44,253 nt of DNA from Rotaria sp. (taxonomy: Eukaryota), in assembly GCA_905250055.1 (NCBI GenBank), contig CAJNOF010000004.1, positions 4,268,656 to 4,312,908 on the forward strand. The letters run 5' to 3'. The notes under the pieces are model-generated. The model had not been told where the DNA came from, ran no database searches, and saw nothing but the letters and a program-made list of their open reading frames with translations. Positions within the stretch are counted from its first letter, which is position 1; the number at the start of each line of letters is the position of its first letter. Below, piece by piece: positions 7,836 to 34,799 of this stretch. A program made the translations under genes and the position numbers.

Positions 7836-8621
7836 ATGGCTGATCCCAAAAAGCCATCAACGGCATCCTCATTATTGTCTACGACAAGTTCATTTTTGTC
7901 AACAAAAAATACTACTCTTAACAGTAGTTCATTACTTCAAGGATCGAGTCTTTTATCTTCATCAACATCTAATAAAACAAGTTCACTTTTATCAGAAACG
8001 AGTACAAGCAAACCATCGGGTCTTCTTTCATCATCAAATGTATTAGGTTCTCTGCAAAAGCCATCATCGTCTTCAACTCTATTGAATACTTCATCTAAAC
8101 TATCATTTGTTTCAACACAATTAAATACTTCATCTAAACCATTATCTTCATCAAGTCTATTAAGTACTCCTCCTAAGTCATCTTCATCAACTCTATTAAA
8201 TACTGCTCCTACATCATCATTTCTTTCCACTACAAAAATATCTACTAACAATACATTGCTTTCATCATCAAATTTAAATAATTCATCTTTATTAACAAGT
8301 GAAACAAGTTTAAGTCGAAAACGTAAAGCTGAACCTTTAGAATCAACAGGCATAAATCAATCATTAACTCAAGAAACTTTAAAGAAATCTACATTAACAG
8401 CAACAAAAACAAGTACACCTGTTTCACTCTCGGATGAAAATGAACGCAAATATAATGCTGAAAATATCCAACCTGAATCGATTCGTCTTAATGTTGATTT
8501 ACATTGTCATATTCCAGCACCGAAACGTCCTCGTATTGATCCATTTTCTTCAATCTATGCTAAACTTGAAAGTCAAAATATAACAGATGATGATTTCAAT
8601 GTGGGCATTAAATCGATTAAG
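7836..8621 (+). CDS. TEP1: TEP1 exon 1: Ser/Leu-rich repeat region plus basic (NLS-like) segment.
   Basis: [67 protein letters not shown]...SRKRKAEP...[34 protein letters not shown]; donor AAG|gtttga. Confidence 0.75.
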
Positions 8622-11600: not shown

Positions 11601-14600
11601 GTTACTGATCTTGAACAATTTGCACAACGTGTTATTGATAATTTATGGACATCATTACAAGAAGAATATAAACCTGAATATGTTCTATTAGATGATAATG
11701 AAATAGAAGATAATCAACATCAACAATATCGTATGTCATTTATGGAACATTTTGTTAGTCGTAATAAAATTCTTCAAGATACAATTAAATCTCTTGGAAA
11801 ATCATCAGTTATTCTTATTACAGGACAACAAGGTTCAGGTAAAACAGCAGCTATTGCAGCTATTGCTAATAATATTTTATCAAAACTGGATTTAAATGCT
11901 AAAGTATATGAACATTATGTTGGTATTACACGTGCATCCTTAAATAGTGTTGCAATGCTTCGTCGTTTACTTTGTCAAATGATAAATGATCATTCCGAAG
12001 TAGCAAAACAATTTCCAATTGATAAAATTCGTTCAAGTTCATATACAGATTTATGTAAAATATTATCAGATTTCTTTCATACGATAAAAGGTCCATTAAA
12101 TATTGTTATTTGTATTGATGGTATTGAATTACTTGATAATGATACATTAGTTCATACATTAAATTTTATTCCAAAAGATTTTAATTTTGAAAAAATAACG
12201 TTTATTATTAGTGCTACAGAAGATAGTAATGTTGAACAAGCATGTAAAAATTTTTCTAATTTATTAACAATTAATATATCAAATCTTGAATTACTTGAAC
12301 GTAGTGAAATTGTTCGTAAACATCTTGATCGTTTTGGTAAAAAATTAGATGAACAAGCATTTTCATCACAAATGAAATTTATTACAAGTAAACGTGATTC
12401 ATTTAAACCATCATATTTAACATTAATATGTGAAGAATTATTATTAATGACAGATTATGAAAAGAAAATAACAGAAAAATTAAAAGCTATTCCACAAAGA
12501 CAATATTTATTTTTACTTGAAATATTTAAACGATTAGATACATTATTTGGTGAAACATATGTTGGTACAATATTTGGTTTAATTTATTCAGTACGACAAG
12601 ATTTAACTGAACAAGAATTACGTGATTTAATTAATATATCATTTAGTTCAACGAAAACATTACCTCCACCAGATAATTATACTTATCCAATAACAACAAC
12701 ACCTTTACAATTAGCTGATTTTATTTATAATTGTCATATTTTATTAAAACCTCAACTTTATGATGGACCACAAACAGTTTCAATAGCATCAAATGAAATT
12801 CGTCAAATAGTTAAAACACGATATATCCATTCAAATGAACAACAAATTAATTTATATAAACTTCTTGCTTTTTATTATTGGTGTGAAGCAACTGGACCAC
12901 AATGGACATCAATGAATATTAAAGCATATGAACATTTACCATATTATTTATATGCTGCTGAAGAATATAAATTATACTATTCATTATTAACTAATCTTAA
13001 ATTTATTGCTGGTAAATGTCGTGTTGGTCTTGTTCAATCATTAATTGATGATTATGAATTAATTAAATCTCTATCAAAAGTTTCAACTCATAAACAAACT
13101 TCTTCAATTATGAAAACAAAATCAATATCATCAACAAATACAAAAGAACAACCAATAAATGAAGTATTTCTTCAACAATATCGTTCATTTATACAACGAA
13201 ATAGTCATATTCTAGTTGTTAATCCATCATTAATTTATCAACAAGCATTAAATGAATTAGAAACAAGTCCTGTTTTTGATAATATACAACAAATACTTTC
13301 TAATCATCAAAAAAATTCATCCAATACAAATGATCAAATAACAGCATTTGTTCGTATTAATAAACCAGATAATATGGAACAAATGAAATATTCAATTGAA
13401 GGTTTTACAGAACCTATTCGATGTTTAGCAATATCACCATCAGGTAAGTTAAAATAAAATAAAAATACGAATATGAAAAAAATAATAATCAATTTTATTT
13501 TATTTTTTAGGTGTTCATCTAGCTGCTGGTTCTGCTGATTGTTTAATTCGTCTATATAATACATCAACATCTCGTTTATTAAAATTATTTGTTGGTCATG
13601 CTGCACCAATATCTGCTCTATGTTTTGTTGGTAATGATCGTTTAGTAAGTGGTAGTAATGATGGTGGTTTATCAGTTTGGGATGTATTAAATGGTCATCG
13701 TTTAAATATACTTTCACCAAAACATGATAAACGAGTTTCAGAATTATGTTCAAATCAACGTGGTACACAATTTGCATCTGTTTCATGGGATTCATTTGTA
13801 CGTATATGGGATATACAAAAAAGTCGACCAGATACAGAAATTCGTTTACATCCTAAACCAGTATCAAGTGTAGCATTTCATCCTGATGGTTTTATGTTAG
13901 TAACTGGTTGTTGGGATAGTATTGTTCGACAATGGAATGTAACAACTGGACAACGTAAATCAGTTATGCGTGGACATTTAAGTTCAATAAAAGCTGTTGC
14001 TTATTCAGCTGATGGTCGTTATATAGCATCATGTTCAATTGATGGTGAATGTCGTTTATGGAATTCATTAACTGGTAGTCAAGTTGGTCTTATATCAGCT
14101 CGTATAAGTTCGATTTATTTTTCACCAAATGGATCAACATTAGCATCAGCTGGTAATGATGGTCGTGTTCGAGTATTTTCATCAACAATAGGTCAATGTC
14201 AAATGATTATAACGAATGAAACATGGGGTTCAGTATCGAGTATTATGATTCATCCTGAAGGAGAATTTATTATAGCTGGATATCATTCAGGTTCTATAAG
14301 AGTATTTGATATACAAAATGGTACTACAGAACAAGAATTTCATTATCATAAAGGTCGTATTAATCGTCTTGGATTTTCATCTTCATCAGGAAATATTTTA
14401 ATATCAGCATCAAATGATCATAATTCTCGTATATATGATTTAAAAGATTTAGGTAAAAGAACTGATATTCGTATTCAAACAGCAATACTTAAAGGTCATA
14501 CAGCAGCTGTTCTATCATGTGCTATGAGTAAAACGAATATGATTGCAACAGGATCTGAAGATGCAACAATTTGTTTTTATGTACTATCAAAATATTTTGA

Positions 14601-16566
14601 ACGTTCATCACATGAACCAAATGAAATTTTAACTGAACATCGTACACCAATTACTGGTTTAACATTTAATAATGAAACACATCAATTAATATCAGCTAGT
14701 CGTGATGGTCAAGTACATATATGGAATATAAATCGATATTCATCAAAAGCTGTTGTAACACTATCAAATACACTTGCTCATTGTCATGCTGATTGGATAA
14801 ATGATATTGCTTTATCAAATACAAATAATGGTTTACTTGTAACTGCATCAAATGATAATACATTAAAAATTTGGAATACAATACCAAAAACAACAAAAAC
14901 TAATGATGATTCTATGGATGTTGTTTCAGCTAATGTTGAAGAAGCACGTGTAACACTTCGTGGTCATCAAGGCTCAGTTAATACAGTTTGTTTTTCATAT
15001 GGATGTGTTGTTTCTGGTTCATTGGATAATACAATTCGAGTATGGTCTCATAAAGGGACTGAAATAACATGTTTACGTGGTCATACAGAAAAAGTAACTT
15101 CATGTGACTTATGGATTAAATTAAAAGGTGTTCCTATAAAATCTGAGACCGATACAGATTCTAAATGGGCAAATATAGTTGAAGAGCAAGAAAAAGAACT
15201 TTCACGTACAACACATACAGTTGATACAATGCTTGTTGTTAGTGCATCAGAGGACGGTTCAATACGTGTATGGCGTCCAACTGATCCTGAACAACGTTGT
15301 GTGTATGATGCACATGCACAACCATTAAATGATATAGTACTAAATAATGAATCAATTGTAACATCATCACTTGATAAAACAGTTCGTTCATGGCAAATTC
15401 CAACAAATATGTTTATAAATAATGATTCAACAACATCAGCAATGACACCTCAAGTTGTTCCACCTGTTAGTCATTTAGATGAAGTTACATCGATTAGTGT
15501 TTCTCGTGATAATTCACTTGTTTTTACTGTTTCACGTGATGCATATCTATTTATTTGGTCATTATTATCATTATCATCAAAAAATGATGATTATGAAATG
15601 GATACAGATATGATAAAAAATAAAATGTCGAAACAACCATTTCGTATCATACAATCAGTTAAAGCACATGATGAAACAATTCTTGGTATGGCTTTAGTCC
15701 GTTCCGATACTCAACATCATATTCTTGTAACTGGTTCTGTTGATAAAAAAATTAAAATTTGGACAATCATAAATAATCAAAATGACGAAAAATGTTCAAT
15801 TAAACGTTTAAGAACGGATACAACAGCAAATGGACCTGTTTCATTTGTTTCTGGTCGATATGATATGCCATATTTTGTTGTTGGTGAAAATCAATCATTT
15901 GATTCACTTACATTCTATCTTTATTCATCAACTTCACTTGACCGTTTAAAAACATATAAAACACAAACATGTCAATGGCCATTATCATCATTAATAACAT
16001 TAAATGAACATCAACATTATATTTTAACAATTGGTTCAACAAGTAATGAATTATGTTCATATGATTTATCATTAATTGATTCAACAGATAGTAAATTATA
16101 TGCATCATATGCATCAACAATCGAATATCGAACATCAATAACATCTGAATGGATAACATCAATAGAAAATTTTGATAATAATAAAGTTTTTTACTTAGGT
16201 ACAACAACAGGAAATATTTATTCAACAACAAATTTATTTAGTGATATAAAAACATGGAATAAAAATCAAATATCATCAAAACAACGATCAATTACAGCAT
16301 TATGTTCAATTAATAATGAACTTATATTTACAAGTGGTTTTGATAATGTCATACGAGTACAATATAGAAATGATCATGCAAAACATATGAATACAAATGA
16401 TGATGATGAACAAGATGAAAAAGTTGATGATATTCTTGGACAGTATCCTGTACCAGCACCAATTACACAAATGCGTACATGGAAACAAAACAATAATGGA
16501 ATATTTGGTGTTGTAGCCGGTGATACATTAGGAAACCTATATTTAGTACAATGGTATTCGTCTTAA
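7836..16566 (+). CDS. TEP1: TEP1 homologue (telomerase-associated protein 1 / vault TEP1), 7 exons, about 2,760 aa. Domain order: Ser/Leu-rich N-terminal repeats, TROVE, DUF4062, NACHT NTPase, long WD40 array. Model: join(7836..8621, 8682..8816, 8888..9597, 9662..9780, 9890..10577, 10646..13443, 13511..16566).
   Basis: All six introns are short (59-108 nt) and GT-AG with matched phases (gtttga, gtaaaa, gtaagt, gtatgt, gtaagt, gtaagt; acceptors ttttgtag, cattttag, tttaacag, ttttcag, ctttttag, ttttttag). The TROVE region is [59 protein letters not shown]...[21 protein letters not shown]4062 is [50 protein letters not shown]...[17 protein letters not shown] Walker A is [20 protein letters not shown] and Walker B is [14 protein letters not shown]. 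More than 15 WD40 units follow (GH..., WD/WN dipeptides, e.g. [45 protein letters not shown]). The TROVE-DUF4062-NACHT-WD40 order is the defining TEP1 architecture (established knowledge). Start ATG at 7836 (agaaaATGg) and stop TAA at 16564-16566. Confidence 0.85.
8682..8816 (+). CDS. TEP1: TEP1 exon 2 (start of TROVE).
   Basis: [45 protein letters not shown]; acceptor ttttgtag; donor gtaaaatt. Confidence 0.7.
8888..9597 (+). CDS. TEP1: TEP1 exon 3 (TROVE).
   Basis: Continuous ORF (8912..9601 in the ORF track) extended 5' to acceptor cattttag|gct; donor ac|gtaagtgac. Confidence 0.8.
9662..9780 (+). CDS. TEP1: TEP1 exon 4.
   Basis: (T)[39 protein letters not shown]; acceptor tttaacag; donor gtatgtat. 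Confidence 0.75.
9890..10577 (+). CDS. TEP1: TEP1 exon 5 (end of TROVE / vWA-like part).
   Basis: [52 protein letters not shown]...[10 protein letters not shown]; acceptor atttttcag; donor at|gtaagtaatg. Confidence 0.8.
10646..13443 (+). CDS. TEP1: TEP1 exon 6 (DUF4062 + NACHT NTPase).
   Basis: 904-aa ORF in track (10743..13457) extended to acceptor ctttttag|tat; Walker A GQQGSGKT; Walker [11 protein letters not shown]; donor cag|gtaagtt. Confidence 0.85.
13511..16566 (+). CDS. TEP1: TEP1 exon 7 (WD40 array, stop TAA at 16564-16566).
   Basis: 890-aa ORF in track (13894..16566) extended 5' to acceptor ttttttag|gtg, in the same frame. Dense WD40 signature: ...GHxxxIxxLxFxxxGxxLxSGSxDxxIxxWD. 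Confidence 0.85.
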
Positions 16567-18533
16567 GTGTGATCATATATATATATATTCTTATACAGTT
16601 TATTATCCGTCTTTTCTTTTTTTTTAGTATACTTAAAAAATTACTTACACTTTTTACTATTGTATCATTATAATATAATTTTATTTTCTAATAAAAATGA
16701 TACAAAAAAAACACATATGCATATATTCTTATGATCTAAATTGCGCGCTATCAAGGTATAGATATTCATAGCAATTAAGAATCTGCCACTGTCTCGATGA
16801 GAAATTCTTCGAAAACATCGTCCGTCAGTCTACGAAACTATCACAATCAGATTGAATCCATCAGATACATCCAGATTTTGACTGTTGCATCTGCAAACAC
16901 TCAAATGTACATTTAGTTTTTTTTTAATTTTGAGGTTTATTTTGTTCTTTGAAACAATTGAAACAATGGGTACTCAATCAGAACATTCATCTATAATATG
17001 TATTAGGTACCAAAAGAAAAGAAAAACAATTTAGTCGTGCAAAATAATATTATTCAAGAATTTGCAAGTACATTGAAATATGTTTTCAGTTCGTTAGGTC
17101 GAATTTTGGAAAAGAAGAAGACCATCCATAAATCCAGATGTTTTGATGATTAGAAGTTTTCATGATATGAAGTATTGTTTTTTTTTGTTCGCTTTATGAT
17201 TGAAAGCAACTGAATTAAGACACATAAAAAACTGATATGAAAGTTTGGATCTTTCAATAGTGCTAAGCAGGACAGGATCAGATCGTCTAAACATCGTGCT
17301 CTGCAACCTTCTTATCTGGTATAATGGTTATAACATTAGTTTCGAAATGATAAAATACTTACTTTTCATAAATAGATATAATAAAAAGTCTTCAAAAGAA
17401 AATTTTTCAATTTCGCCAAATAAATTAATGCTTATGTTTGAACAGATAATCAAGAATTCCAATCACAATTTGAAATGACTAATATCTTCACTAAAAGAAC
17501 TTTTTTTTTCGATTGAATGATTTATCTAGATTAAGAAAATAATTTCATTATTTATATTTAATCGAATCTAGCAATAATAATAATAAATGAAACGAAAATT
17601 TATCAATTCTATGTTTGACTAATTATCCTGTCTCTTTTTTCTCTCACATATAATAATAATAAACAAACACAAAAGATCTTAAAAGTCACTAAGAAAATTA
17701 GTCAGTATGAAATTCTTCAAGTTTACACATATGTGTATATGTATGTGTATAAAAATAAAACAAGAAAGTATTTAGAACATTTAAGAAAATAATACATAAA
17801 CATACATTCATTTATATATGAATAATGATCTTGACATCTTATATTCATGTTTCATCATATATCTGCATTTTATCATAAACATATGTAATCATTGAGAGAA
17901 AAATAGTTTATTTTAACAGTTGAAGACTTCAAGAGAATTCAACAAAATTTCAAAACTTCACCACTCAAGTTCTTCTTGTTGTTTGATCTTTCGTAATAAT
18001 ACATATATTGACAAAATTATTTTCTTCCAATCTAACTTACTACACTAGCAATGGATGAATTTTTACATAATGAATGTTTACAACAATAGATTCTACACAT
18101 TTATATATAAAATTATTCGACATGCTCTCAAAAAATTTACTCTTGAAAGCTTTTGTTGAATAAAAGTATTACGAGGAAAAAAAACTAGCATTATATAACT
18201 AATGCGATCTTAAAAGAGCGTAAATTTCTACTTCCAGCATATGATTTGAAAATAATTGACAATTTGAGATAATATTTTTGAAAGCTATATGATATTACTT
18301 CTAGATCATTTATGATACTCTAGAATGTTTCTCAGCAGTTTTTTCAAAAAAAATCGATTTACTTGTCGTTAACAAAGTGTTCGAATATGAATATATAAAC
18401 GAAGAAATACTCTTGCAGTTGAATACAAATTTTCGAATCAACTTAATGTTTTCGAATCTATCCTTAAACCTTGACGTTCATTTTCCGTAAATGCTTAGAG
18501 AACTATTTTTTAATTAATAAATTTTTATTTTAA

Positions 18534-19111
18534 CCCTTTGGTTACGGATCACACATATACTGTATGTGTATTGAACTTTTCCTTGGACTACTTCTGTTAC
18601 AGTTATGACTTTACTGCTTTAACTAAGTGCACAATAGCATGGCTTTTTATACTCTATATTGTACGACAATTCCTCTACATATCTTTGTTTTGGTCTGTTC
18701 TACGGAAGTCATACTTCATGGCAAAGTCAAAACCTGTCAGTTCTCAAGAGAGAGTGATACAATGCCGAGTGCTACTAAGGAAAAATACTTTATTCATAAA
18801 CTAGAAGACATTTGCTCATGAGGCATAATACAACACTCCTGAGACATCACCTGAAATGCTATCGCAGCAAATACGCTAATTGTAGTACCCTAACACTACC
18901 CTGATTGTACTCTTGTCCATTACAGGCTAATGGTGAAAGGAGAGCTATCTTGTAGAATTCCATCACTTAGTTATATTATAAAAGTGCTCTGGTACTATCA
19001 GAATTGTAACGTCATTATATAGTCTTACCATACATCGACATATCCTATGTGAAGCATTTTTCATAGAAATCGAAAATTTTCTTTTCCTAGAAAAATCCCG
19101 TAACCAAAGGG
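18534..19111. mobile_element. Non-autonomous piggyBac-like MITE, 578 bp. It has 14-15-bp perfect terminal inverted repeats (CCCTTTGGTTACGG ... CCGTAACCAAAGGG) and is flanked by TTAA target-site duplications at 18530-18533 and 19112-19115.
   Basis: TIRs and the TTAA duplication are read directly from the sequence. TTAA insertion with CCC...GGG termini is the piggyBac-superfamily hallmark (established knowledge). There is no intact transposase ORF inside, only short ORFs. Confidence 0.6.
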
Positions 19112-19830
19112 TTAACAGATCAAGCATTTAACGTCTATTTTTCTTCAAAATGTGGATCTCGAAGCCAGCACGTTCAATAGAGCTGGGACTTTGTGCACAG
19201 ATTGAGGATAGACAATTTATACGCTAGAAATTTTCCAGCTTCATGTCTTTTTAGCTAGCGGAAGGTCAATTAATTTCAGTATATGTAATGGTAGGCATTT
19301 GGCATCTATCGTATCTCCAAGTGCATTCAACTACCTTAAGATATAAAGACAATTCTCGTTTTTTTACTTTAAAGAAAACACTTGAGACTTGCAACTGTTG
19401 TTGCCCTTTTTTTGCTTTGCTTCTTTTTCGTACTCGTTTGATTGAGTATTCGATCGAAATCGTGAGGAAAAAATGCGCAATTCTACTTAAATAGCGAACT
19501 TTTGAAGGAAAGTAACAAGTAAGAAAAAGATTTTTTTCTATGTTTAAACCTTTTAAAAAAAAAGGATTACGAGAGTCGTTGGACCGAAGCATGAACTTTC
19601 GGATAAAAAAAAAGATTTAATTTTGTTTCGTATTGGAACAAAAAGCTTCTGGAGACGCATCACCGACCATATGATTCGAAATAAAAATGAAAAACATTTT
19701 CTGCCTTTACTAAAAAAAAGCTGTTAGTGTACTTCCTGTGGGATTAAAATGTGAAACATGATTCATCTACTTATTCAAAATAAAGGACACTATAATGTCT
19801 GTGAGAGTCTGGAATAAGGATCAAATTTGC

Positions 19831-20018
19831 TACCTTTATACTTCAAAATTCGTTTTAGATTGTGTTTCACAAAAATACTGTAATGTTGGTATGGTCTACG
19901 ATAGTCTCTGATTCATGTGTGTGTCACGGTCTGTGTGGGGCGAGGACGAGAGGTTCAGGTCTAGATTTTCTACTTTTTTACTTCAGTATTTCTTCTAGAT
20001 TGTGTTTCACAAAAAGCC
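19831..20018. repeat. Tandem duplication: a roughly 140-bp unit, with copies beginning about 19831 and 19970, sharing 'ctactttt(a/t)tacttca...tagattgtgtttcacaaaaa' and separated by a short GC-richer stretch.
   Basis: The 20-mer tagattgtgtttcacaaaaa occurs at 19856-19875 and 19996-20015, with conserved upstream context. Confidence 0.5.
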
Positions 20019-22782
20019 TGTCTTTTTCAGTAGTGGATGACGGAAATGATCAAAATTTTGGCGCGAAAAAAATCGATGTTGATGTAAAAATTATATTGTT
20101 GTTAAAGTATAGCATGATTGAGACTATAATCATCAGCGTTTATCTGAGTTTTCATTTTTTGGAGATATTGATTTTTTCTGTTGAAGAGGCTTCAGAAAAA
20201 CAATACATGAATGGGATACATACACATAAGAATAATGCGATGCACCTTCGTCTCTAAAAGAAGACTAACATCCTTTCCGTTTCATGTTACAATTGATAGA
20301 AAAATTAAGACACAAGAGTAATAAATTACTCCACTGGACTTTCCAAATTTTGAAGACGATTTCATAGGGCTCCATAAGACGAGAGTCTGTTGTTTCTCTT
20401 CTGGTCTAGTGTCTTTTGAGTCCGATAAAAATATCTTAGGTTCAAAAAAGTATTTTGTATGTTGTAAGTCTGGAACAGGAATACTACTGTGGGGGCGAAT
20501 TGAATTTATCGCCTTCGTATTTTTTTTTGTTTTTATCACTGTAGTCTTTTTATATATTAATTCATTACTATATATAGAGCAAGAAAATCCGAAACGTGCT
20601 GTATCTTTTGGTATATTTATATTGAATATCAAATGCAGTTTAAGGTGTAAAAAACGTACTAGAAAAAAAAGTAACATATTATTTTTACTACAATGTATAT
20701 TGCAAATTCAGTGACGGTATGGATGCAACTGTGAAGGTCAGGATGGATGTGAATGAATGTACGTAAGGGTATGGGCGTATTTGGATGCGAATGTGAGTGT
20801 GGAATGAATATAAAATAATCTCAACCCCAGTCACACATACACCGACACTCATAGGGTGTTGGTGTAAGTGATTGAAGAAGAATAGCTGCAACTACACCCA
20901 CAGATTAAAATAGTCGCTTTAAAATTGTGCAGAATCTTGGAATTCAAACCTGCTTAAGTCCAATATTCAAAATCATACAGTACCATCTGAAAACACGTTT
21001 TTCTCTTCATAATTGACAGTTGAATATGGTATAACACATAAGGAGTATGAAAATTAGTAACAATTATTTAATTTCTTTCAATATATATGTGAATTGTTAT
21101 TGCCGTTACTGTTTTCTCTAACTAAAATGACAATAAGAAAAGCTCTTCAAGATTAAGGGTGATGTCAAGGATTGGTAGCATATGTAACGCATCATATTCT
21201 AATATATTGGAGCATATTCTCTGTATTATTTTGCAATTTTATCTGCTTCATATCAACAAGTATATCAAGCACTTCTTCGGGTAAATATTTCTAGTTTTTT
21301 ATACTAAAAGTACAACATTATATTAAAACACAAAGCAGCATATGAAAATACAAAGTATGCTGTTTGGTACTTAACGAGAGTTGCCTATTTGTATTTTTGT
21401 AAAATTAATTAAACTCTAACGTAAATTACAAATAATTTAATTTGAAAATAATTTTAGTATGTTTTTATTATTAGTTTACTTTATTTTAATTACGAATTCT
21501 GATAATTTAAACTAAAAATAGATTTAAATTACATAATTTTAGTTTATGTTAAAGTTCATATAGCGAAAATTAAAATTAAAATAGACTTCAACTATAATGC
21601 GAAAAAAAATTACTTTTTTTGAAATATAGGTTATTTTTAATTTATTTGTGTACTTAATTTCTTTTCAATATAAAATAGCTTCTCTGAAATACCAGCAATT
21701 AGAGGATCTTTTTTGAAAAAATAAAACTAATTCTAAATTAGTCTCGTTCAACTTTATCTCTCTAATTTTGTATACTATGATAGAAATTTTTTATTTATAC
21801 AAAACTTGGTAAAATTCGAAGTAAAATTGTGTTAAATAGCATCTCAGAATGTTTATTGATATGTAGAAGTTAATCACTTGATCGTACAATTCAATCGGCT
21901 AAATGACAGGTAAGAAACATATTATATGCATGTTTGAATCTAACCTTCATCCTTACATATTTCAATTTAGATTAGTCCGGACCAGACCAGTGTATAAGAC
22001 TACAACTCCTCGTATGCAGCGTCATGGACTCCCACACTTTTTTTTATTTACAAATGTTTTTGGACGGACCTCAAGGATTGTACAACATGCCTAGTCCTTT
22101 TCTCACAAAAGACTAGACGAGACGTGCCGTTATGACAAGAACAGCGACTAGTCTTTTTACCCGTCCTTTGTTCATCTGGGTAAGATGTAAAATATTTAGT
22201 CGTAGTCAATAAAGGAACATCACCTTTCATGATCTCAATGAAGTTTGGACTATTTCCTTTTTAGATAATAGCTTTAACTTTTCACTACATAACTGTATAT
22301 TTCAACCAATTATCTATACATGTATTTGTATCAACAGCATAAATTTACAGAGAAAGATCAAAACTTTTGGATAACCCTTTATTAAGACTGTTACTCATAG
22401 TTATCACTATAATTAATAGCCTAATATCAAATATGTATCTGCACTTTCTCTCTTGCTTTAGATTCCCATTTGTTATATATACATGATCTCAGAGTCGTCT
22501 CATCCATCTAAATTGTATGATAAAAATACATGTCCTTTATAATCTAAGCATATACAAAGGTTGTTATCAGAAAAAATAAACAAATAGCTTAATTCTACTT
22601 GTAACATTTTAAAAATGTTTAGCTCAAATCGATAACTATAAAATGATTTGTATCTTCATCACACTGATAATTTTTAAATATTCTACTATTTTGTCGAGTT
22701 TTTCTTATCAAACACTAATTTCCTTTTTTTTTGCGCAGTAAAGAAAATTTTCTGTTATTTCGATTTAATGTTGTATTTTTAA

Positions 22783-23531
22783 ATGAATAATAATCCTAAT
22801 TCTAATGAAGTACCTGAACAAATAAATCTGTCTAATCGAATAACAACATCAAAAATTCTTGAAAAAAAAGAAGTTCTTATATTACATCAAGTTCCTATTC
22901 AACTTCATACAGCTCAACAAGAAATAAATAATTTACGTCTTTTAAATATTTGTCTTCAATCAACATTAATTCGTGTTCAAACTCAATTAACTGAATATTT
23001 ACCAGTTAATATTCATGATGAAATAAAACGAAATGAAACAAAACAAAAATTAATTTCATTACGTCAAATCGATGATCAAAGTCGACGAATTATTCATCCA
23101 CAACAAATATCTTTTTTTCAAATAATTAATAATTTTAAAAATTTATTAGATATTAAACAAAAACAAGAACCATTTAATAATAAAGATATTCCATTATCGA
23201 AAAATGAAAAACAAATTGATATTTTATATGAAATGTTTCATGAACTTAATACTATAATACATACAGAACATCATGATAGAATTTGTCAACTTTATATTAC
23301 ATTAGCTGAAACATCTCATTCAGTAAATCAAGCACGGGAAAGTAAAATTCTTTTTTTCTTTTCTTTTTTTTTTTTTGAAACTATTTTCTTATAGTTCTAC
23401 ATCATACAATTCATGCACATAAAATCATTACACGACGAAAAATTAAACGAAAAATAATTTTCATATTAATTGCATGTACATTCATTTCAATATTTATATT
23501 TATAATTATTATATCTATTCAAATACATTAA
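22783..23531 (+). CDS. 2-exon gene encoding a tail-anchored coiled-coil protein of about 233 aa, possibly SNARE/syntaxin-like. Model: join(22783..23341, 23395..23531).
   Basis: ORF from ATG 22783 (MNNNPNSNEV...SHSVNQARE). Phase-1 donor A|gtaaaatt at 23342; acceptor ttcttatag at 23394. Exon 2 encodes ILHHTIHAHKIITRRKIKRKIIFILIACTFISIFIFIIIISIQIH*, a basic juxtamembrane stretch plus a single C-terminal TM helix 2 residues from the stop. The preceding heptad region (IDILYEMFHELNTIIHTEHHDRI) loosely resembles a syntaxin SNARE motif ([23 protein letters not shown]). Identity is inferred and not firm. Confidence 0.55.
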
Positions 23532-25425: not shown

Positions 25426-27314
25426 TTAATTTTGCTGTGAATAAGCGATTGTATCGTTTAGTAGATGGCTGAATATCACATCAAATGAATTTTCTCGTTG
25501 TAATTTTCTATTGAAATTCATATGATATAAATATGGCGAACTAATGGGTCTATCAGATGTTCTTATATCGTTCAATTCTTCATTTTCATAATTCCAAAAT
25601 TGAGGAGCATCAATCAATTGTATATGATTAAATTTTTCATAATCGAATCCACTTAATGTAGAATTACATGGTGAAAATTGATAACCCCATAAAAGTTCAT
25701 TAGGTAAATAAGATGTACGAAAATGACATCAAAAACCAGTATAATCAAAAGAACCTTCAATAATAGCAATGATTTCAAAATGTTATTTTTCTAATGTTGA
25801 TTGTTGTATACCATAAAGTGGACTACGTGAATTAATAATATGTTCAACAATAGTTGGTTGAGGAAAAAATAATTGATCATTACGTAAGTGTGGTAATTCC
25901 ATATCATAGATTTGATGAGGAATTATTTCACCTTCAAGTGTTCGTCGCTGACGAATCATTAGTAAACGAACACTAGCAAATATCAATTAAGAAGTTGATA
26001 AGTTAACTATAAAAAAAAAGAAAAAGAAATGAATCTTTCTTTTATAATGGTTTATTTGACATACCTATTCGAAATGTTAATGGTAATTGATTATTTCGTG
26101 GGGCAATGAGCGGATAATTACTGAATATAATAAATTGGGATTTTTCTAAAAATATACAAAAAATATTCATTTATTATCATCAATCAAACAAACTAACAAA
26201 AATAATATTCTTTCATTATGGAATATTTCTAGAAGACCTTGATGGTTTACAATCTATTCTGAAATTATTCATAGAATTAGTTCAGCTTTGAATTTAATTA
26301 ATGAAATTTACTTTTATTTTGTTAAGTATCAGAAAAAAGAATAACCTTCGCCTGTAGGTCGTGATAATTTAGTAAAAACAATTTGTGTGACAATAACTTG
26401 TAATAAATATTCAAGTAATGATTGAAGAGTTCATACAAGTATACCACCCATACATTCTGTTGTTATATATCTTGAACCATAACCAATTGTATGTTGTGTT
26501 TCAATAGAAAAAAGTAATGCACTTAAAAAATCATGTACAGGGTTGCCAAAAATGTTTTGCCCGGGGGATACAGCTCCAATGACAAATGATATCAATATTG
26601 AATTTGATACAAAATGGAAGCCCGTCAAGAATGGGGTTTATCCATACGAATGAATAAGGGCTATAAAGACTTTTCTCTATCAAACTTTGATAATTTCTAA
26701 AACTCCATGAACTATAGTCATAGCAAAACTATCCTTTATCATAGAGAACTCAAACTATTCCTGATATAAAATTACTAAACATAGAAAGGTTATCCTTACT
26801 TTTTATGGCTTAATGAATGATACAAAATAAAGGTAACTTTGCTAGATTCAGTATTTTTATATCAGAAGTAGTCTGAGTTCTTTATGATAAAGGATAGTTT
26901 TGCTATGACTATGGTTCATGGAGTTTTGGAAATTTTCAAAGTTTGATAGAGGAAAGTCTTTATAGCCCTTATTCATTCGTATGAATAAACCCCATTCTTG
27001 ACGGGCTTCCATTTGGTATCAAATTCAATATTGATATCATTTGCCATTGGAGCTGTACCCACGGAGCAAAACATTTTTGGCAACCCTGTACATCTTGAAC
27101 ACATTTTTTTTGTTCTATTTTCAAATATTGTCGTGTATAATTTGTTTGATTATCTAATAAAACTTGTTCATCATCGTTTAAAACAATATATCCATGTTCA
27201 ATTGAAATAAGAACATAAAGTGAGGAAAAGAAAAACCAACCTAATATAAAACCAAACAAAACAAATATTAATACAAGCCACCAGTAGAGGGCTGTAGATT
27301 GCTCTATTTTGACA
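25426..27314 (-). pseudogene. Inward-rectifier K+ channel (Kir/KCNJ family) gene copy that appears disabled. Recognisable segments: M1 helix (27092..27313), pore helix/selectivity filter + M2 (26346..26530), cytoplasmic C-terminal domain exons (about 26061..26146, and 25426..25972).
   Basis: The minus-strand translation is collinear with Kir2/Kir6 sequences. Segments: (i) LYWWLVLIFVLFGFILGWFFFSSLYVLISIEHGYIV...KKCVQ (M1); (ii) [62 protein letters not shown] (pore TIGYG + M2); (iii) EKSQFIIFSNYPLIAPRNNQLPLTFRIG; (iv) IVRLLMIRQRRTLEGEIIPHQIYDMELPHLRNDQLFFPQPTIVEHIINSRSPLYGIQQSTLEK*HFEIIAIIEGSFDYTGF*CHFRTSYLPNELLWGYQFSPCNSTLSGFDYEKFNHIQLIDAPQFWNYENEELND... There are three in-frame stops at aligned, normally coding positions: TGA 26431-26433, TAA 25783-25785 and TGA 25729-25731. 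A 560-bp hairpin interrupts the M1-pore exon. The conserved N-terminal cytoplasmic segment (…RFV.K.G.CNV.F…IFTT.VD.KWR) could not be found; the sequence upstream of M1 is the ctgccctgccctg repeat instead. Confidence 0.65.
26531..27090. repeat. 560-bp long hairpin / foldback element. The two roughly 225-bp arms (26531..26760 and 26870..27090, about 93-95% identical as reverse complements) flank a partly palindromic roughly 110-bp centre.
   Basis: The left arm 'atgtacagggttgccaaaaatgttttgcccgggggatacagctccaatgacaaatg...' is the reverse complement of the right arm '...catttgccattggagctgtacccacggagcaaaacatttttggcaaccctgtacat'. The boundaries fall exactly inside Kir coding sequence: right flank ...KKCVQ / left flank [13 protein letters not shown].... 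Confidence 0.8.
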
Positions 27315-27375
27315 ACCTGACTCTGCCCTGCCCTGCAAGTTTTTGTTATGTACCCTGTTCTGCCCTGCCCTGTTT
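27280..27375. repeat. Copy A of a GC-rich 'caccagtagag / ctgccctgccctg / taccctgtt' repeat family.
   Basis: caccagtagagggc...ctgccctgccctgcaag...gtaccctgttctgccctgccctg. Related motifs recur at 28555-28735. Confidence 0.5.
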
Positions 27376-27562
27376 TCTTTAAAACTAAAGAAAATTCCAA
27401 ACTTTCGTATTAACTCATTATACAATTTCATTTCGATTTGTTACAACCATGAAGCAAAAAACAACAACATTATGTATCTCGAAAATTTCTAATCACGAAA
27501 ATATCATCAACAATATCTGAATTTAAAAACTATCTTTTTTTTCTAATATTCGATCTGATGAA

Positions 27563-27763
27563 CTAAAACATACTCCGATATGGGTATGCATCTTCTCTTC
27601 GTACCCGCACCCTATCAAGAGTTTTGTTGTTTTTTAGTGTATTTGATTCATCTAAACAATTTTTAAAATGATAGCTACTAGTAGAAGTTTCGTTTGATAT
27701 GGAATATGATAATATCTCATGACACAATCGACATTTTACAAATGGTGAATATACATTATTCAA
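27563..27763 (-). other. ORF fragment with a BED-type zinc-finger-like spacing (C-x2-C-x17-H-x3-C): ...SPFVKCRLCHEILSYSISNETSTSSYHFKNCL.... Possible remnant of a hAT-like transposase N-terminus.
   Basis: 66-aa ORF in the track; the adjacent upstream frame (27764-27960) is interrupted by a stop. It lies between the two repeat copies A and B. Motif spacing only, so weak. Confidence 0.2.
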
Positions 27764-28204
27764 ACGTTTAACACGTAATAAATGTTCCTAAAATGAACCA
27801 TGAGATGATAATGGCGGTTCTACTATAGCTATAAATTCATCAGTTTTAAGTTTTTCTATCACCCACTTCTTTTTTCGTTCTATATCTTTTTTTGAATTAA
27901 ACATAGTTGATATTTCACTAGCAGAAAAATCTAACCGATATTGATGATGATATTTGAGAGATTAGTTAATGATGATAATGAAGAAAAGATCAAGATAAAA
28001 GTCAAAATAAGAAAACTAAATGCAAACTTGAGTAACCATATAATGTATAATGGATAGATTACCGACATATTTGCTTCTATTAAATATCTTTGCGACCAAT
28101 CTAAATTGATTGTTCAGTTCACTTTCACTTCTATTTTTTTTCTTAATGTATAAATTTAGAAAAGATGTTGACAATATCTAGCGCATAAAAATCGTCACAG
28201 GTTG

Positions 28205-28503
28205 ACAGCACATGTAAAAAAATGGATTAAGAATCAGATTAAAAATCGATTATAATGGCACTATTATAATCTGATTTTAATCAGATTTTTCAGCTTTAAA
28301 ATACAGATTTTATTTGATTTTGATTTTTTTTATATCTATTTTAATCGATTATTATAGTAATTGTAGGTAATTGGTTAAAATAGATTAAAAGAAAATCAAA
28401 ATCAAATAAAAACTGTCTTTTAAAGCTGAAAAATCTGATTGAAACCAGATTATAATAGTGCCATTATAATCGATTTTTAATCTGATTCATAATGCAAATT
28501 TTT
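28205..28503. mobile_element. Foldback / MITE-like element of about 300 bp. It is a near-perfect palindrome: arms of about 125 bp around a short AT-rich centre (28320-28380), with ends catgtaaaaaa...ttttttacatag.
   Basis: Left arm 'atggattaagaatcagattaaaaatcgattataatggcactattataatctgattttaatcagatttttcagctttaaaatacag...'. Right arm '...ctgtcttttaaagctgaaaaatctgattgaaaccagattataatagtgccattataatcgatttttaatctgattcataatgc' is its reverse complement. Confidence 0.75.
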
Positions 28504-28554
28504 TACATAGGAGGTCACGATACTCGTACTCTGCAGCCTTTCCTGTAAAAATTT

Positions 28555-28735
28555 TCATAACCCGGCACTGCCCTGCCCTGTCAGGGCAGTGCAGGTTATC
28601 TATACCCTGTTGGGCTCTAGTCACCAGTAGAGCCTATCGGGTCCGGGTATGGTCGGGGTCTGAAGATTTTTTTTCGAGCGGATCTGGGTCCGGGTCTAAA
28701 ACTTTTTGCACCCGATGGGCTCTACCCACAAAATA
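28555..28735. repeat. Copy B of the GC-rich repeat family. It contains a perfect 10-bp-stem hairpin (cactgccctg-ccctgt-cagggcagtg), a 15-bp inverted repeat (tagagcctatcgggt / acccgatgggctcta) and the direct repeat gggtccgggt x2.
   Basis: Read directly. It shares ctgccctgccctg, taccctgtt and caccagtagag with copy A (27280-27375). Confidence 0.5.
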
Positions 28736-31700
28736 TCAATCACCCAATATATATTCGTCTGTTCTGTTTTATCTTACAGTTGGTTTTTCGTTCATGATTG
28801 ACATTTTGTATTATGAAAAGGTCTGATCATAAAATGATATTCAGTCATCCTTCTGTTCATTGTTAATATAAAGCACCTAAAGTTTTTTCTTTTTATTTTA
28901 TCCTCTCTATTATTAAATTTGGAAGTGCATACGATGAATATCATAAGCGTTCATAACTGTTTGATTATACGACTGCATATTGTTATAGTGCATACAGAAT
29001 CATAGACAAACGAAAAAAATTGATTCACAATATAGCATGACTGGTGAATAAAATATGATGAGAATATGCAACTTAGGAATGAAACCAGGAAAAACTGGAA
29101 AGAAGACAAACGAACGAAAAAAAAAGCGGTTACAGTAAAGAGAAGAGAGAGAGAGAATAACAAACACAAGCGCGCCAAGTTTTACATGGATAAATAGTCA
29201 ACGCACAAAAGAAGCAGTGATTGATGCCTTGCATGTATATGTTACACTTGTTTCATTCGAAAGAAATGTAGTGGCGTAATCAGGGATGTGCTAGGCTCGC
29301 CACTGCTCTACCAGCAGAAGAAAAAAAGACTATAATAATTATCCTTATTGACGCTATATTTCATGAATTTTCTCCAAGATAATGGAGCATTGTCCTACCA
29401 TTCAAGATCTTCTGTTTATACCACTAAAGAAATGTCCAAAAGACTCATTCTTTTTACTCTTATGAAATAAATCTTAATTAAGCATATTACTAAAAAAACT
29501 ATTGACCGAGTTAAATAACGTATCTAATCACAACGACATACTCCTAATTTTAATTTTCTCAATGTAACTATCGCAACTGATTTCCAAACATCGGAATACT
29601 TGTGTTTTCTCAACTAAGTATTGAAACAGCGTATGAAACAACTTATATAATTCTGTCAAAGCTATTTGTTCATAACATTGAATAGTCTTGATGATGACAA
29701 AGAAAGTATATTTCCTTTGCTTATTTTGGTAAACATAAAATTAAACTTTTGGATATTCTACTTGATCTCACAACCGTATTGAGTTGTGTTCAATCTGCAA
29801 CTATGAGTAGAGGATGTGGCAATGATCGTTCGAGACATATTTTACTCTTGTACACAGATAAAAATAATATTGATCCTTGAATAAAATAGTCATTACAGAC
29901 AGCGTCGGGTGCGGTTACTGAGAACATGGATAGTGAAGGTTGTACTATTGCAATGCTCTGATCATGTACAGAAGCAGTACTACTGAGAATTTTTTCTTTT
30001 TCTTTCCATTGTATAAGTCGTTGTTTTAAAGCAACAAAAAAGCCTACGTAATTCACATACTATTTATCGATATTGTTCTCTCTATTCGTTTCCTTCATCC
30101 AAAAATCTTTTAAGAACATGAGAATAGTTTCATACAGTTTCCAACTCACATTAAAAAACATTTTATTCTTATCAAAACCAACATTTTCACAAATAATCAT
30201 TACTGGTGAGAGATCACTAGTGCCAGTCTTCACAATCTCTTCTCGTGCACCTTCTACATTTGTAAACATTAAATCAATGTTTCTTTTCGAATGTTTAGTA
30301 GAATGTGACGTTGATGGAATGTAATAACGATTGTTTTTATTCTACACATCCTTTTCAAACTTCTATCTCTTTTATGGGTACATTACAATCAACAATGATG
30401 ATTGTATTTTCAATGATGTATGATTGTAAATTTCCTAAATCTTCTACTCTGTACTGGCGGTCAATAAATAGCAATTGTTCGAATTGTTTGACTGAGCCCA
30501 GTACAAGCTGTTCAAACAAAATACTAAATTGAGCTATTCGATATGCATTTCACAGATTATCAACTTCTGTAAATACAAAAATTAGAGACATTCATTTTAT
30601 GACGAACGTTCTGACAGAAAAGAATCAAAGAGAGTTGTTCTTTTAACAGAGAGATATTTTTACATTGCATCAGGATATTTTCTTAAAAATCTGCCATAAT
30701 CATTCTGCAAAAACTTTGTCTACTTGTTTCTGATCTTTTTGTCTAGAAGCCTGATTGACAAAACTGTTTTATTGTTGAGAACAGAAAAAAAATATATGGC
30801 ATCTACCCTCCATTTAGAAAACATAGTACTTATGGAAATGCTCATCTTTGAATAATAATTATTATTTCGTGTGTTGACAGTTTTTTTCGACCGATGCAAT
30901 GAAGAGAGACATAGAAATGGCGATGTATGCTGCTGTTGATCTCTCCATCCGGCAATATTAAGACTGTCATCATCGATTAGACTAAATCATTAAGTAATAA
31001 TTCAAGTGTAGGCAGTAGTTGTAATTTAATATTCAGAGCTATTTGATTGATTTTCATATTGATACGATCTAAGTTTTTATCCATACAAGACGTAGTCTTT
31101 ACCATATTGAACATGTTTTGTTTGATTAATAATAACATTTTGGTTGTATCTTCATTAGTTATTGTTCATGATTGTAATAGAGCAAATATGAAACAATAAT
31201 CGATGCAATTGTCTTGATGATATTGCACTTTCAACTTATTATTTTAAATTTAACGTGTATGTAGCTTTTCTACATTCACTAAATAAAGAATGATGATAGT
31301 CATCATGTTAGATACGAAGAACTATATTTGAAAGCTCATGTGTTTGATTATCAATAAGAGTATAGTATATTATATGATTGCCGATCAGAAAAAGTATGAT
31401 AGTAGAGAATGTATTTTCAACTATTGTGATATTGATATTAGTGATTTGAAATGACTATTTATTTGTAGACATAAATATTTTGTATGAGTCAGTTTTTTGT
31501 TTACATACTACTCATATGACTGATGAGTGAAAATGCGACCGATATTTTTTGCTATTTGAACTATTCTTCAAATAATGTTTAAAATCTGCATGTTTCAACC
31601 GCTTAAATGGAAGACAATACGATTAATATTCTAATAATTCCTATCGTAGTTAAGCATATTGTGGATTATTAGTCGATAGATATATAGAGTCAGTAACTAT

Positions 31701-32903
31701 TCATCAATTCACTTGACCAACAATTTTTGTTTTTGTATTCAATAAAATACACATTGCTATGTTAATATTAGACATTGCAGCTGTGAAAAATGAATGAGAT
31801 GTTTATAAACACCGAGTACTAAAATACTAAGGTTTTGACGAATACATGCAATCCTTTATTTCACTTTGGTACGTAGCTGCTATAATAATATTTCCAACTG
31901 TTGTTTTATTGATTATTATTTGTCATAGCGATGATAGATGAGTAAATTTATTACTAATTAGACGATGAATGTGCCTTATTAGTACAATAATTACTGCAAA
32001 TTACATTTCTCATTAAAATAGATAGAGGAAGATGTCGTCAAAACAAGAATGTAAGCAAGTACTTTTGTGTCTACTCTCGAAGCAGAAGAAAGAAAACGTG
32101 CATCACTTGATTGTTTGTTCAATAATAGTTCTTTTTTAATTTTTAACGAAAGGATATCATCTAATAAAGTTTTCTTTCTCGATGTATCTCATAATTGCTA
32201 TATACAACATCATCATACAACGACTATTTATGGATTATATTTGGGTTCCGTCTTCCATGTTTACTATCACAAATGAAATATTCGTAACTAAGTTTCTTTT
32301 TAACTGTGAAATCAAATTCTAACTGATTAATCTTATCGATTACTTCCTTTACTGTTCAATATTTCACGCCTTTTAAAAATACTAAATAGGTAGAATTTAA
32401 AAAAAAACAATCTGATTAGTCACTTGCTCATTTTTCTCTGTAAATAAATGACGAAACATTTTTGAAATAAGTTCTAGTATTATACTGCCATCTTTGATTA
32501 TAAAAAACAAAAAAGAAATCTTTGGTGAATATCTTTCGACTAATAAATAAAATAAATAAATAAAAAGTCGTTCAAATACGAATGGTTTATTCTTTCCATC
32601 AATCAAGGATATTATTTATGTAAATGATCATCCAATAAAAATGATTGATTAAAAAAAGAGTCAATCAAAATGAGGGTACATAAAGACATAAATAAAGTTT
32701 ACAATGGAGTAAATACATATGAAGACCTATTCTGTCAGTTAAGGAAACAAAACAACAAATATTTTATTTCTCAATTATATTGTTACTTTTATGATTATTT
32801 TATTTTTAAGATCTATTTTTTTTTTCTATTTTTTTGCATTTTGTTTATCATCATAAAAGTTGTTAATATGCACTGTTAACATCTTAAGAAAAAAAACCGA
32901 ATT

Positions 32904-34799
32904 ATGTCACCGAATAATCGATTTTTTTCATGCTTTTTTTCTCGTTTCTCAACTACTAATAATGATCATCATCGAGCTCATCAACTTGTTAATACCGAAG
33001 ATGAAATAAATAGTGATGATCCGACCGAACACACAATAGTTGAAGAACAAAATCTTGTTTCTCAACCAATAACAACAAGAGCTTATTCATCATCCTCAAT
33101 ATTAAAACGATATGAACGAAATTATATTTCAGCATCATGTAGTATGTTTGCTATAGCTGCATTAGCAGTAAGTCTATCTGATTATCGATGGTTCTGGTTA
33201 AATGGTGGTTTATGCAATTCAAAATATATTGGTTTAAGTATGTTTTTTGCTGTTGGAAAATTATTTGTTGTACGAGTACCTGTTGCATGGGATCCATCAG
33301 CACCAATGAACGAAATTTATCAATTTAAACCAAATGATTATATGGGTATATTTTGAAAAAAAAAGAATATGATCAAATAATCAAAAATTTTTTCTTATAG
33401 ATTTAAGTGGTTGTGTTGATACACGTTCGATATTAATTCTTCGTTTAATGATAACATTAATTTGTTTAGCGATATTTTCTTCGACTATTGGATTTTTATT
33501 AGATGCACTTGGACCAATGAAATTTGGACTAAAATTTATGAGACGTCATGCGTTTTGGCATATTTTATCAGGTAACAAAAAAATAAAAATAAATTTGATT
33601 TAAGTTTTCGTAAATGATTTTATTTTGTTTTTCGATTTGTTTAGTTCTTCTTTGTACAGTAGTAACCGGTCTATGTTTTTGGGCATCGGAATTAATTTAT
33701 GATATTCAAGATAAAACTCGTACGAAAATAGGAAAAAAAGTCGAAGTACAATTCGATGTCGCTTATTATCTTGTTGTTATGTCCAGCGGTCTTTCATTAT
33801 TAGCATCTGCTTTTGCACTCTTAAGACGATATCCAACAGCTGAAGAAGAACATTTAGAAAGGTATATTATTAATCATTTTCGGACGAGATTTACTTATAT
33901 AAAAAAAAAACAAAATTTCAAAAACTTTGTAGGAAAAGAAAAGACGACGATTGAAGGTAGACTATTTGTCTTAATACTACAATATATTGGAGATCGTTAG
34001 ATAATAAATAGATTCCTCATTGATATTTCATGGTATTTCTAAAAAAACAAAGTTCCGATTGTGATAGCAGTTGTTTTTGATTCAGTGATACAAAGAGAAT
34101 AGTGTTGAACGTTTAAAACTTATTATGCCTACAGAATGTTTAAAAAAAACATGCACGAAGATGATGTTCCGTTTTGTTTTGAGAGGTGCTTCACATCTAT
34201 AGTTTAAGACATGATTCAGGTAAACAACTATTCTGCTGACTTCTTATCTAAAGATCTTTAAAATAAAACACAGTTGAATGTTTTTCTTTTTTAAAAGAGG
34301 ATGAATTTTAAAATAATTTTATCTTATGTAGTATCAAGTAATAAAGATGTTCGGAGTTCATTATTTACATACTTATGAGGAAACCTTTTCATTGGTGTCA
34401 AACTTTATGCATATAGAGAACTCAATTATATTAGTTTACATAAAAGGATCATTATGTAGTATCTACAGGCAAAAAAAAATTTATTGAACTAGGAAAATGG
34501 GTATTTGAAGAGGTTCCCTCATTAGTGGAAATCATAAAAGTGCATTGATAAATTAATAATGAGTGGATTCAAAACTCTGTATGTATGTATATGGATATTT
34601 TGTATCTTTGAGAAGTTAAAATAAAAAAAGATCTTTATTTATATTTCTGTTATTATATTTAATTAGATTAATGGATGATTGGTCACGACGTGAAGAACCT
34701 TTGTTTATTGAACGTTCTTTACCGGCTTCAATATCAACAATACCAACAAGTGATGAACCACCACCAGAATATTCCGAACAGAATGTTATTGTAGTATGA
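32904..34799 (+). CDS. 4-exon gene for a four-transmembrane (tetraspan) membrane protein of the PMP22/claudin/LHFPL-like type, ending in a PPxY motif. Model: join(32904..33345, 33400..33571, 33645..33861, 34667..34799); boundaries are +/-1 nt.
   Basis: Exon 1 ORF MSPNNRFF...CSMFAIAALAVSLSDYRWFWLNGGLCNSKYIGLSMFFAVGKLFVVRVPVAWDPSAPMNEIYQFKPNDYM (TM1 followed by an extracellular loop with W..GLC). Exon 2 DLSGCVDTRSILILRLMITLICLAIFSSTIGFLLDALGPMKFGLKFMRRHAFWHILS (TM2). Exon 3 VLLCTVVTGLCFWASELIYDIQDK...AYYLVVMSSGLSLLASAFALLRRYPTAEEEHLE (TM3, TM4). Exon 4 RLMDDWSRREEPLFIERSLPASISTIPTSDEPPPEYSEQNVIVV*. Donors gtatat, gtaaca, gtatat; acceptors ttcttatag, ttgtttag, ttaattag; phases consistent. The family call is inferred from topology and motifs only. 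Confidence 0.6.

Follow-up and report, generated by a model that had tools for sequence, protein, structure and literature searches.

A TA-flanked foldback MITE, probably of Tc1/mariner type, within a Kir pseudogene of a bdelloid rotifer

PALTA elements are palindromic, take TA as their target, and presumably owe their mobility to Tc1/mariner transposases. They represent the closest described class for the element reported here, the whole-length foldback MITEs, of which PALTA1_CE and Hairpin are examples (PMC3814204). The Caenorhabditis elegans elements PALTA1_CE, PALTA2_CE and PALTA4_CE (PMC3814204) resemble ours in being short, non-coding and essentially one inverted repeat. Ours differs from PALTA in its own termini (CAGGGTTGCCAAAAATG...), its bdelloid host, and the restriction of similarity among relatives to the outer ~100 nt; the likeness is one of class description. 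Stowaway and Stowaway-like MITEs, which are derived from Tc1/mariner, also show a TA duplication, are non-autonomous and measure a few hundred bp, but their repeats are typically 10-30 bp around a non-palindromic core, whereas here the repeat occupies the whole length. In Drosophila Foldback (FB) elements the arms consist of tandem sub-repeats and the target-site duplication is 9 bp long. Our element has long inverted arms able to fold back, as FB does, but it lacks tandem repeats and its duplication is 2 bp, which sets it outside FB. Tc1 of C. elegans, with a published inverted repeat of TACAGTGCTGGCCAAAAAGATATCC (PMC3680223), and Sleeping Beauty, with a majority target consensus around TA of ANNTANNT (PMC8934666), both differ from it in size, ~1.6 kb against 551 bp, and in having the transposase gene that it lacks.

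In bdelloid rotifers, known TEs make up 2.4-7.3% of the genome and are concentrated away from genes; their insertions are mostly species-specific, one recent retroelement insertion in coding sequence has been reported, and RNAi gene families are expanded (PMC7943196). A foldback-like DNA TE indel was noted earlier in a gene-rich bdelloid contig (PMC2861651).

The sequence analysed here, the window, is a stretch of 44,253 nucleotides from Rotaria sp. (contig CAJNOF010000004.1, positions 4,268,656 to 4,312,908). A first-pass annotation of the window reported an inverted repeat within an exon of a Kir (IRK) gene. That repeat is real and far beyond chance. Its arms, at 26533-26806 and 26820-27093, are 274 nt each and are complementary at 249 of 274 positions (91%) on either side of a 13-nt loop. 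Folded as single-stranded DNA, the element forms a single hairpin with a minimum free energy of -241.8 kcal/mol; shuffles reach -47.8 +/- 4.6 kcal/mol, so that the real hairpin lies at z = -42. Identity is 93.5% over the outer 230 nt of the arms, in good accord with the 225 bp at 93-95% first estimated, and 77% over the innermost 44 nt. The arms contain a perfect 23-nt terminal repeat, and the 25 positions at which they disagree comprise 17 transitions and 8 transversions.

Across the element the plus strand reads ...AATCATG-TA-CAGGGTTGCCAAAAATGTTTTG...CAAAACATTTTTGGCAACCCTG-TA-CATCTTG.... The target is an 8-bp palindrome, ATGTACAT, with TA at its centre, and after duplication of the TA either ATGTA or TACAT stands at each junction. 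Because the target is palindromic and its TA is duplicated, the inverted repeat appears 5 nt longer on each side than the true element. Its features are listed below, with L001 and L016 denoting two orthologous loci described further on.

26538..27088, no strand assigned: foldback MITE, 551 bp, with left arm 26538-26806, loop 26807-26819 (13 nt) and right arm 26820-27088
26536..26537, no strand assigned: TA target-site duplication, left copy on the plus strand (downstream in gene orientation); a single TA lies inside GATGTACAT in the empty sites L001 and L016
27089..27090, no strand assigned: TA target-site duplication, right copy on the plus strand; TA flanks the element on both sides
26538..26642, plus strand: family-conserved left terminus, ~105 nt, beginning CAGGGTTGCCAAAAATGTTTTG, with 79-93% identity to termini in metagenomic contigs L002, L005, L011 and L015
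26984..27088, minus strand: family-conserved right terminus, ~105 nt, the reverse complement, on the same basis as the left terminus

Arms of 269 + 269 nt in 551 bp make the element a foldback over its whole length. It is small and non-coding, with stops in all frames. Both arms had been described as open reading frames; about 46 and about 31 stop-free codons do continue from the Kir frame, and nothing more, while a three-frame translation of the element found no homolog at E <= 10 among 5.8 billion proteins. Tandem sub-repeats scoring >= 30 are absent from the element, and an Rfam scan of the whole window, element included, returned no family. There are exactly two occurrences of the 17-mer terminus CAGGGTTGCCAAAAATG in the window, one at each end of the element, against 0.03 expected, and no further part of the element recurs elsewhere in the window.

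The Kir reading frame runs on the minus strand and is interrupted by the inverted repeat after ...KKCVQDV. Excision of 553 bp, namely the element at 26538-27088 plus one TA, restores this frame without gaps relative to Kir2.1, whose sequence served solely as a tblastn probe. The restored sequence is likewise gapless against nine intact bdelloid Kir proteins, in which the D and V at this place are invariant and the H is nearly so. The insertion point falls within the codon for Val in ...CVQDVH(N/D)F..., part of the turret that precedes the pore helix. The hairpin had been thought to lie exactly between codons and to be removable as 561 bp (26531-27091), an excision that in fact leaves the flanks in different frames; the arithmetic was off by 8 bp. 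Codons at the arm ends that seemed to mimic the Kir loop turn out to be the original exon, ATG-TA-CAT being the palindromic target with its TA duplicated. The insertion length of 553 bp is of the form 3n+1 and breaks the reading frame, with a stop reached after 46 element-encoded codons.

Comparison with orthologous Kir genes, a check that the first-pass annotation proposed, yields clean empty sites with a single TA. Where the window has the filled site GATGTA-element-TACAT, L001, L016 and 13 further ortholog loci have the empty GATGTACAT, and filled and empty sites together show a 2-bp TA target-site duplication. Locus L001, from Rotaria sp. Silwood2 (CAJOBM010004890.1), matches the window in collinear order along 25538-33474 (~8 kb), with 70-90% nucleotide identity. 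It reads TGTGTTCAAGATGTACATAATTTTTTAAGTGC at the site (also given as CAAGATGTACATAATTTT), with one TA, and the restored window sequence matches it at 94 of 98 positions without gaps. Locus L016, a 49.6-kb metagenomic bdelloid scaffold, has in common with the window the gene order TROVE-NACHT-WD40...Kir...TMEM127; its Kir gene is intact, intronless, 447 codons long and empty at the insertion site. All 15 of the 15 fetched Kir ortholog loci, representing about six distinct sequences and including two on collinear contigs, are gapless across the site. Since the site is uninterrupted in the orthologs, the event is an insertion private to the window's lineage and not a deletion in the others.

The arm-to-arm K2P distance is 0.098, and the raw distance over the outer 230 nt is 0.065. 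If the arms were identical at the time of insertion, each would have diverged by ~0.03-0.05. Intergenic sequence of the window is 70-82% identical to that of L001. Because arm divergence falls below this intergenic divergence, the insertion is probably younger than the split from the Rotaria sp. Silwood2 lineage, in agreement with the empty site in L001.

One metagenome scan, with the pattern TACAGGGTTGCCAAAAATG, returned 14 contigs. Ten are chance 19-mer matches in contigs of higher GC. The other four, L002, L005, L011 and L015, are true relatives; they have a GC content of 28-34% and come from one sample series, Ga01162xx, and we infer their host from the low GC. About 100 nt of terminus are common to the window element and these contigs, at 79-93% identity, amid unrelated flanks. 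Altogether the four contigs carry five further termini, dispersed copies whose flanks are unrelated outside the TA and in which only the outer ~100 nt are shared. A complete relative of 211 bp, with TA on both sides, lies at L015:11-221. At four of the metagenomic ends the search pattern itself required a TA, the diverged end in L015 (TA followed by CAGGGTTACCAACAATG) alone being independent of the pattern. TGTA precedes five of the seven family termini. The four relatives show no coding capacity. The full 551-bp version was not found as a second copy in the window, the fetched loci or the metagenome scan, where no match emerged to the inner ~170 nt of either arm, and all fetched loci (257 kb, of which ~175 kb is bdelloid Kir-locus DNA) gave no copies beyond those on the four contigs. 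No bdelloid Kir genes were found from the same samples as the four relatives, the Kir contigs belonging to other sample series. A multi-copy foldback family with target-site duplications elsewhere had been suggested as something to look for, and these four unrelated metagenome loci essentially supply it; judged by sequence, the element is a member of a family defined by its termini. As a separate observation, a second non-autonomous family is nested inside L002, with termini CAGGGTTGCCAGATCA... and the start CAGGGTTGCCAG; Stowaway-like MITEs similarly comprise several families with similar terminal repeats.

The element is probably of Tc1/mariner type, an assignment based on TA duplication, terminus similarity and target preference. 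Its terminus, TA followed by CAG.G.T.GCCAAAAA, resembles the Tc1 inverted repeat TACAGTGCTGGCCAAAAAG (PMC3680223), agreeing in 12 of the first 17 columns with one gap, a score above that of 99.87% of the 23-mers in the window. Its target, ATGTACAT, conforms to the consensus ANNTANNT of Sleeping Beauty (PMC8934666), and the element sits at the TA within that palindrome, a likeness to Sleeping Beauty (SB100X). Searches of the window and of the four non-coding metagenomic relatives found no autonomous partner or transposase for these termini. PIF/Harbinger elements, with a 3-bp TWA duplication, are excluded in that the GTA on one side does not equal the TAC on the other; hAT, Mutator and Drosophila FB, with duplications of 8-9 bp, are excluded by the empty site.

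The Kir exon had been treated as part of a working gene. In the window the gene is in fact represented by the following remains.

27091..27285, minus strand: Kir pseudogene exon 1, M1 to turret, upstream of the insertion (WWLVL...KKCVQDV), supported by tblastn, by blastn against L001 and L016, and by Pfam IRK at 1.3e-25
26347..26535, minus strand: Kir pseudogene exon 1, pore helix, filter and M2, downstream of the insertion (...SRPTGE), with an in-frame TGA at 26431-26433 at a conserved Leu
26064..26146, minus strand: Kir pseudogene exon 2 (EKSQFIIFSNYPLIAPRNNQLPLTFRI), with canonical GT-AG introns on both sides
25426..26005, minus strand: Kir pseudogene exon 3, IRK_C domain (2.3e-40), with three in-frame stops

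The stops in exon 3 are TAA at 25987-25989 (conserved Gln), TAA at 25783-25785 (conserved Glu/Asp) and TGA at 25729-25731 (conserved Ser). All four in-frame stops thus sit where the nine intact homologs without exception keep L, Q, E/D and S. The IRK and IRK_C domains and the TIGYG filter are still recognisable, in a copy that lacks the intact ORF of a functional Kir. Homology to Kir orthologs ends at 27285, and the promoter and first ~63 codons are gone. Over 308 codons and with two outgroups, the window branch carries 18 non-synonymous changes (4 of them stops) against 11 synonymous, and the L001 branch 6 against 7, a contrast that is suggestive, though the numbers are small. Two short stretches that interrupt the coding sequence are not damage: they are canonical GT-AG introns, also present in L001 and R. 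socialis and missing from some bdelloid orthologs. The conceptual protein shows 86% identity to a protein from Rotaria sp. Silwood2, followed by dozens of homologs from Rotaria, Adineta and Didymodactylos. On the strength of four stops at conserved residues, 5' replacement and excess non-synonymous change, the Kir copy is dead. Its reading frame marks it as a pseudogene independently of the insertion, a state that the first-pass annotation overlooked.

The region that takes the place of the 5' end is a block of foreign DNA specific to the window.

27286..28744, no strand assigned: window-specific block, 1459 bp in place of 348 bp of ortholog L001, delimited by the collinearity break against L001 and L016
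27566-27787, minus strand: BED zinc-finger remnant within the block (zf-BED, 21.3 bits, cut-off 20.6)
28217..28503, no strand assigned: second, unrelated foldback of 287 bp within the block, with arms of 136 nt at 90% and a 16-nt loop, flanked by ATGTA and TACAT

GC-rich CAGGGCAGGGCAG repeats lie near both ends of the block. With the Kir N-terminus as query, tblastn gave a hit at 28147-27872 whose E value of 9.8 is not significant, and Pfam searches of ORF fragments from the window-specific stretches of 6.3 kb and 3.7 kb gave nothing but the one BED finger. The neighbouring TMEM127-like gene has a best protein identity of 73-83%. Two ORFs of 904 and 890 aa are intact in the standard code and, with an upstream TROVE fragment, constitute a TEP1-like gene of TROVE/NACHT-type/WD40 composition. 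In-frame TAA and TGA codons and a GC content of 29% had prompted consideration of a ciliate or other reassigned code, with the element as a TA-bounded internal eliminated sequence. These intact standard-code ORFs and the bdelloid homologs rule this out, and since the ORFs are intact in the standard code, the TAA and TGA codons of Kir count as real stops.

Several other explanations of the hairpin have to be weighed. The first-pass annotation left open two origins, a foreign foldback TE, which stands, and a palindromic duplication in which part of the Kir exon was copied in inverted orientation, so that the arms would be exon-derived. The latter drew on an inverted repeat that seems to begin within Kir-like codons (ATGTA / TACAT) and on read-through frames that yield ...CVQDV and ...NPVHDF. 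The 5 nt in question, however, are the only sequence common to arm and exon and are the halves of the palindromic ATGTACAT, present already in uninterrupted orthologs; the other 269 nt of each arm resemble neither any Kir sequence nor anything else in the window, and four unrelated loci have termini homologous to the outer ~100 nt, which leaves this origin with next to no probability. An artefact of assembly or library, whether a mirror or a foldback chimera, is conceivable in that such chimeras occur in amplified or long-read libraries and the case here rests on an assembly. Artefactual mirrors are identical, though, and these arms differ at 25 of 274 positions, as the first-pass annotation had argued in calling the structure real; with its precise transposon-type ends, its TA duplication and its relatives in independent metagenome assemblies, it is most unlikely to be of artefactual origin.

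It is just as unlikely that the element is spliced out of a functional Kir in the manner of an introner. Transposon-derived introns do exist in other eukaryotes, and the gene itself contains two real, short GT-AG introns not shared by some bdelloid orthologs. When all pairs near the junctions were enumerated, however, no GT-AG, GC-AG or AT-AC pair restored KCVQDVH(N/D)FLSALL, which bears out and extends the earlier remark that no canonical GT-AG pair would give a clean intron; pairs that preserve the frame all either lose conserved residues or bring in 8-30 foreign ones, their donors are poor, and the gene carries four stops and has no 5' end. A real transposon from some other TA-targeting superfamily, or a foldback family moved by an unknown enzyme, is improbable to a lesser degree. 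No transposase was found, and the likeness to the Tc1 terminus extends to just 12 of 17 aligned columns with one gap; against this, a 2-bp TA duplication, CAG... ends and a palindromic target of the ANNTANNT type together form the signature of Tc1/mariner.

We therefore favour, at a probability of about 90%, a non-autonomous, TA-targeting foldback MITE of Tc1/mariner type that inserted in a bdelloid Kir copy, now a pseudogene; the insertion, its TA duplication, the empty ortholog sites, the family termini and the dead gene are the established parts of this reading. An ORF-less MITE of 551 bp would have been mobilised in trans by a transposase recognising CAGGGTTGCCAAAAA... termini, and inserted by cut-and-paste at the central TA of ATGTACAT within a Kir Val codon. 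The 553-bp insertion breaks the Kir frame, and the gene copy is now a pseudogene; either this insertion or the 5' replacement may have been the first inactivating lesion. A more elaborate scenario, which we regard as a long shot, is that the foldback was the first knock-out lesion, tolerated thanks to the redundant copies that bdelloids keep, and that read-through transcripts of the hairpin, with its 274-bp stem, would give rise to small RNAs against the MITE family by way of the expanded RNAi machinery. If that were true, the dead Kir copy would be a small-RNA-producing trap and not inert debris.

As it stands, this is an ordinary TE insertion in a pseudogene and matters little beyond annotation. 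The appropriate annotation for the locus is a Kir pseudogene with a TA-targeting foldback MITE rather than an exon of unusual structure. The locus offers one clean, polarised DNA-transposon insertion in bdelloid coding sequence, filled in one lineage and empty in relatives. The termini, together with the preference for ATGTACAT as target, could serve as a starting point for finding the family and its transposase in bdelloid genomes. The insertion fits published evidence that bdelloid TEs are still active and that their insertions in genes are usually selected against (PMC7943196).

The gene order TROVE-NACHT-WD40, Kir, TMEM127 is kept in several bdelloid contigs. The first of these genes is an intact TEP1-like gene with exons of 904 and 890 codons; it is 82-88% identical to L016, the syntenic metagenomic bdelloid scaffold. 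Features of the window are listed below by window coordinates, with strand where assigned.

8148-16575: TEP1-like gene (TROVE, DUF4062/NACHT-type NTPase, WD40 propellers)
16576-22899: 6.3-kb stretch separating the WD40 gene from its next conserved neighbour
~26006-26063: Kir intron, 58 nt, canonical GT-AG
~26147-26346: Kir intron, about 200 nt, canonical GT-AG
27276-89 and 28619-32: 14-nt direct repeat CTCTACTGGTG[G/A]CT in the region of the 1459-bp block
27286-28744: 1459-bp block
27306-27372 and 28551-28595: GC-rich CAGGGCAGGGCAG repeats
27566-27787, minus strand: BED zinc-finger remnant, 21.3 bits
28217-28503: second foldback element, 287 bp, with arms of ~136 nt at 90% and a 16-nt loop
30063-30341, minus strand: ORF fragment

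The 6.3-kb stretch lacks a counterpart in L016, which has 160 bp at that place; it carries no long ORFs, Pfam matches or clear terminal repeats. The size gap could mean that the window gained DNA by insertion or that L016 lost it by deletion. The window, Rotaria sp. Silwood2 and R. socialis (contigs L001 and L018) all carry the two short Kir introns. Two metagenomic bdelloids (L016 and contig L021) lack them; their Kir genes are intronless but otherwise orthologous. These introns are a presence/absence polymorphism within bdelloids.

At the 5' end of Kir, the 1459-bp block stands in place of 348 bp of the ortholog, comprising the promoter and the first ~63 codons. The block, which has the GC-rich repeats close to both ends and the BED remnant inside, may be a decayed hAT-like element. 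Separately, the ORF fragment (...NIDLMFTN...TSDLSPVMI...), from a region also present in the Silwood2 contig, resembles by eye the C-terminal motif of a LINE AP-endonuclease; nothing in Pfam matched it at E <= 1.

The 287-bp foldback is unrelated in sequence to the 551-bp element and is bordered by ATGTA on the left and TACAT on the right. These flanks (ATGTA|...|TACAT) imply a putative TA duplication and a presumptive pre-insertion target, the 8-mer ATGTACAT, identical to that of the 551-bp element. The identity of the two reconstructed targets suggests that both foldbacks share a fairly specific target preference. A copy of the 551-bp element's family in the metagenome contig L002 hosts a nested 935-bp non-coding element (L002:1-935) with inverted termini of its own, CAGGGTTGCCAGATCA... 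The termini of the two families have their first 11-12 nt in common, which suggests that one transposase lineage serves several MITE families.
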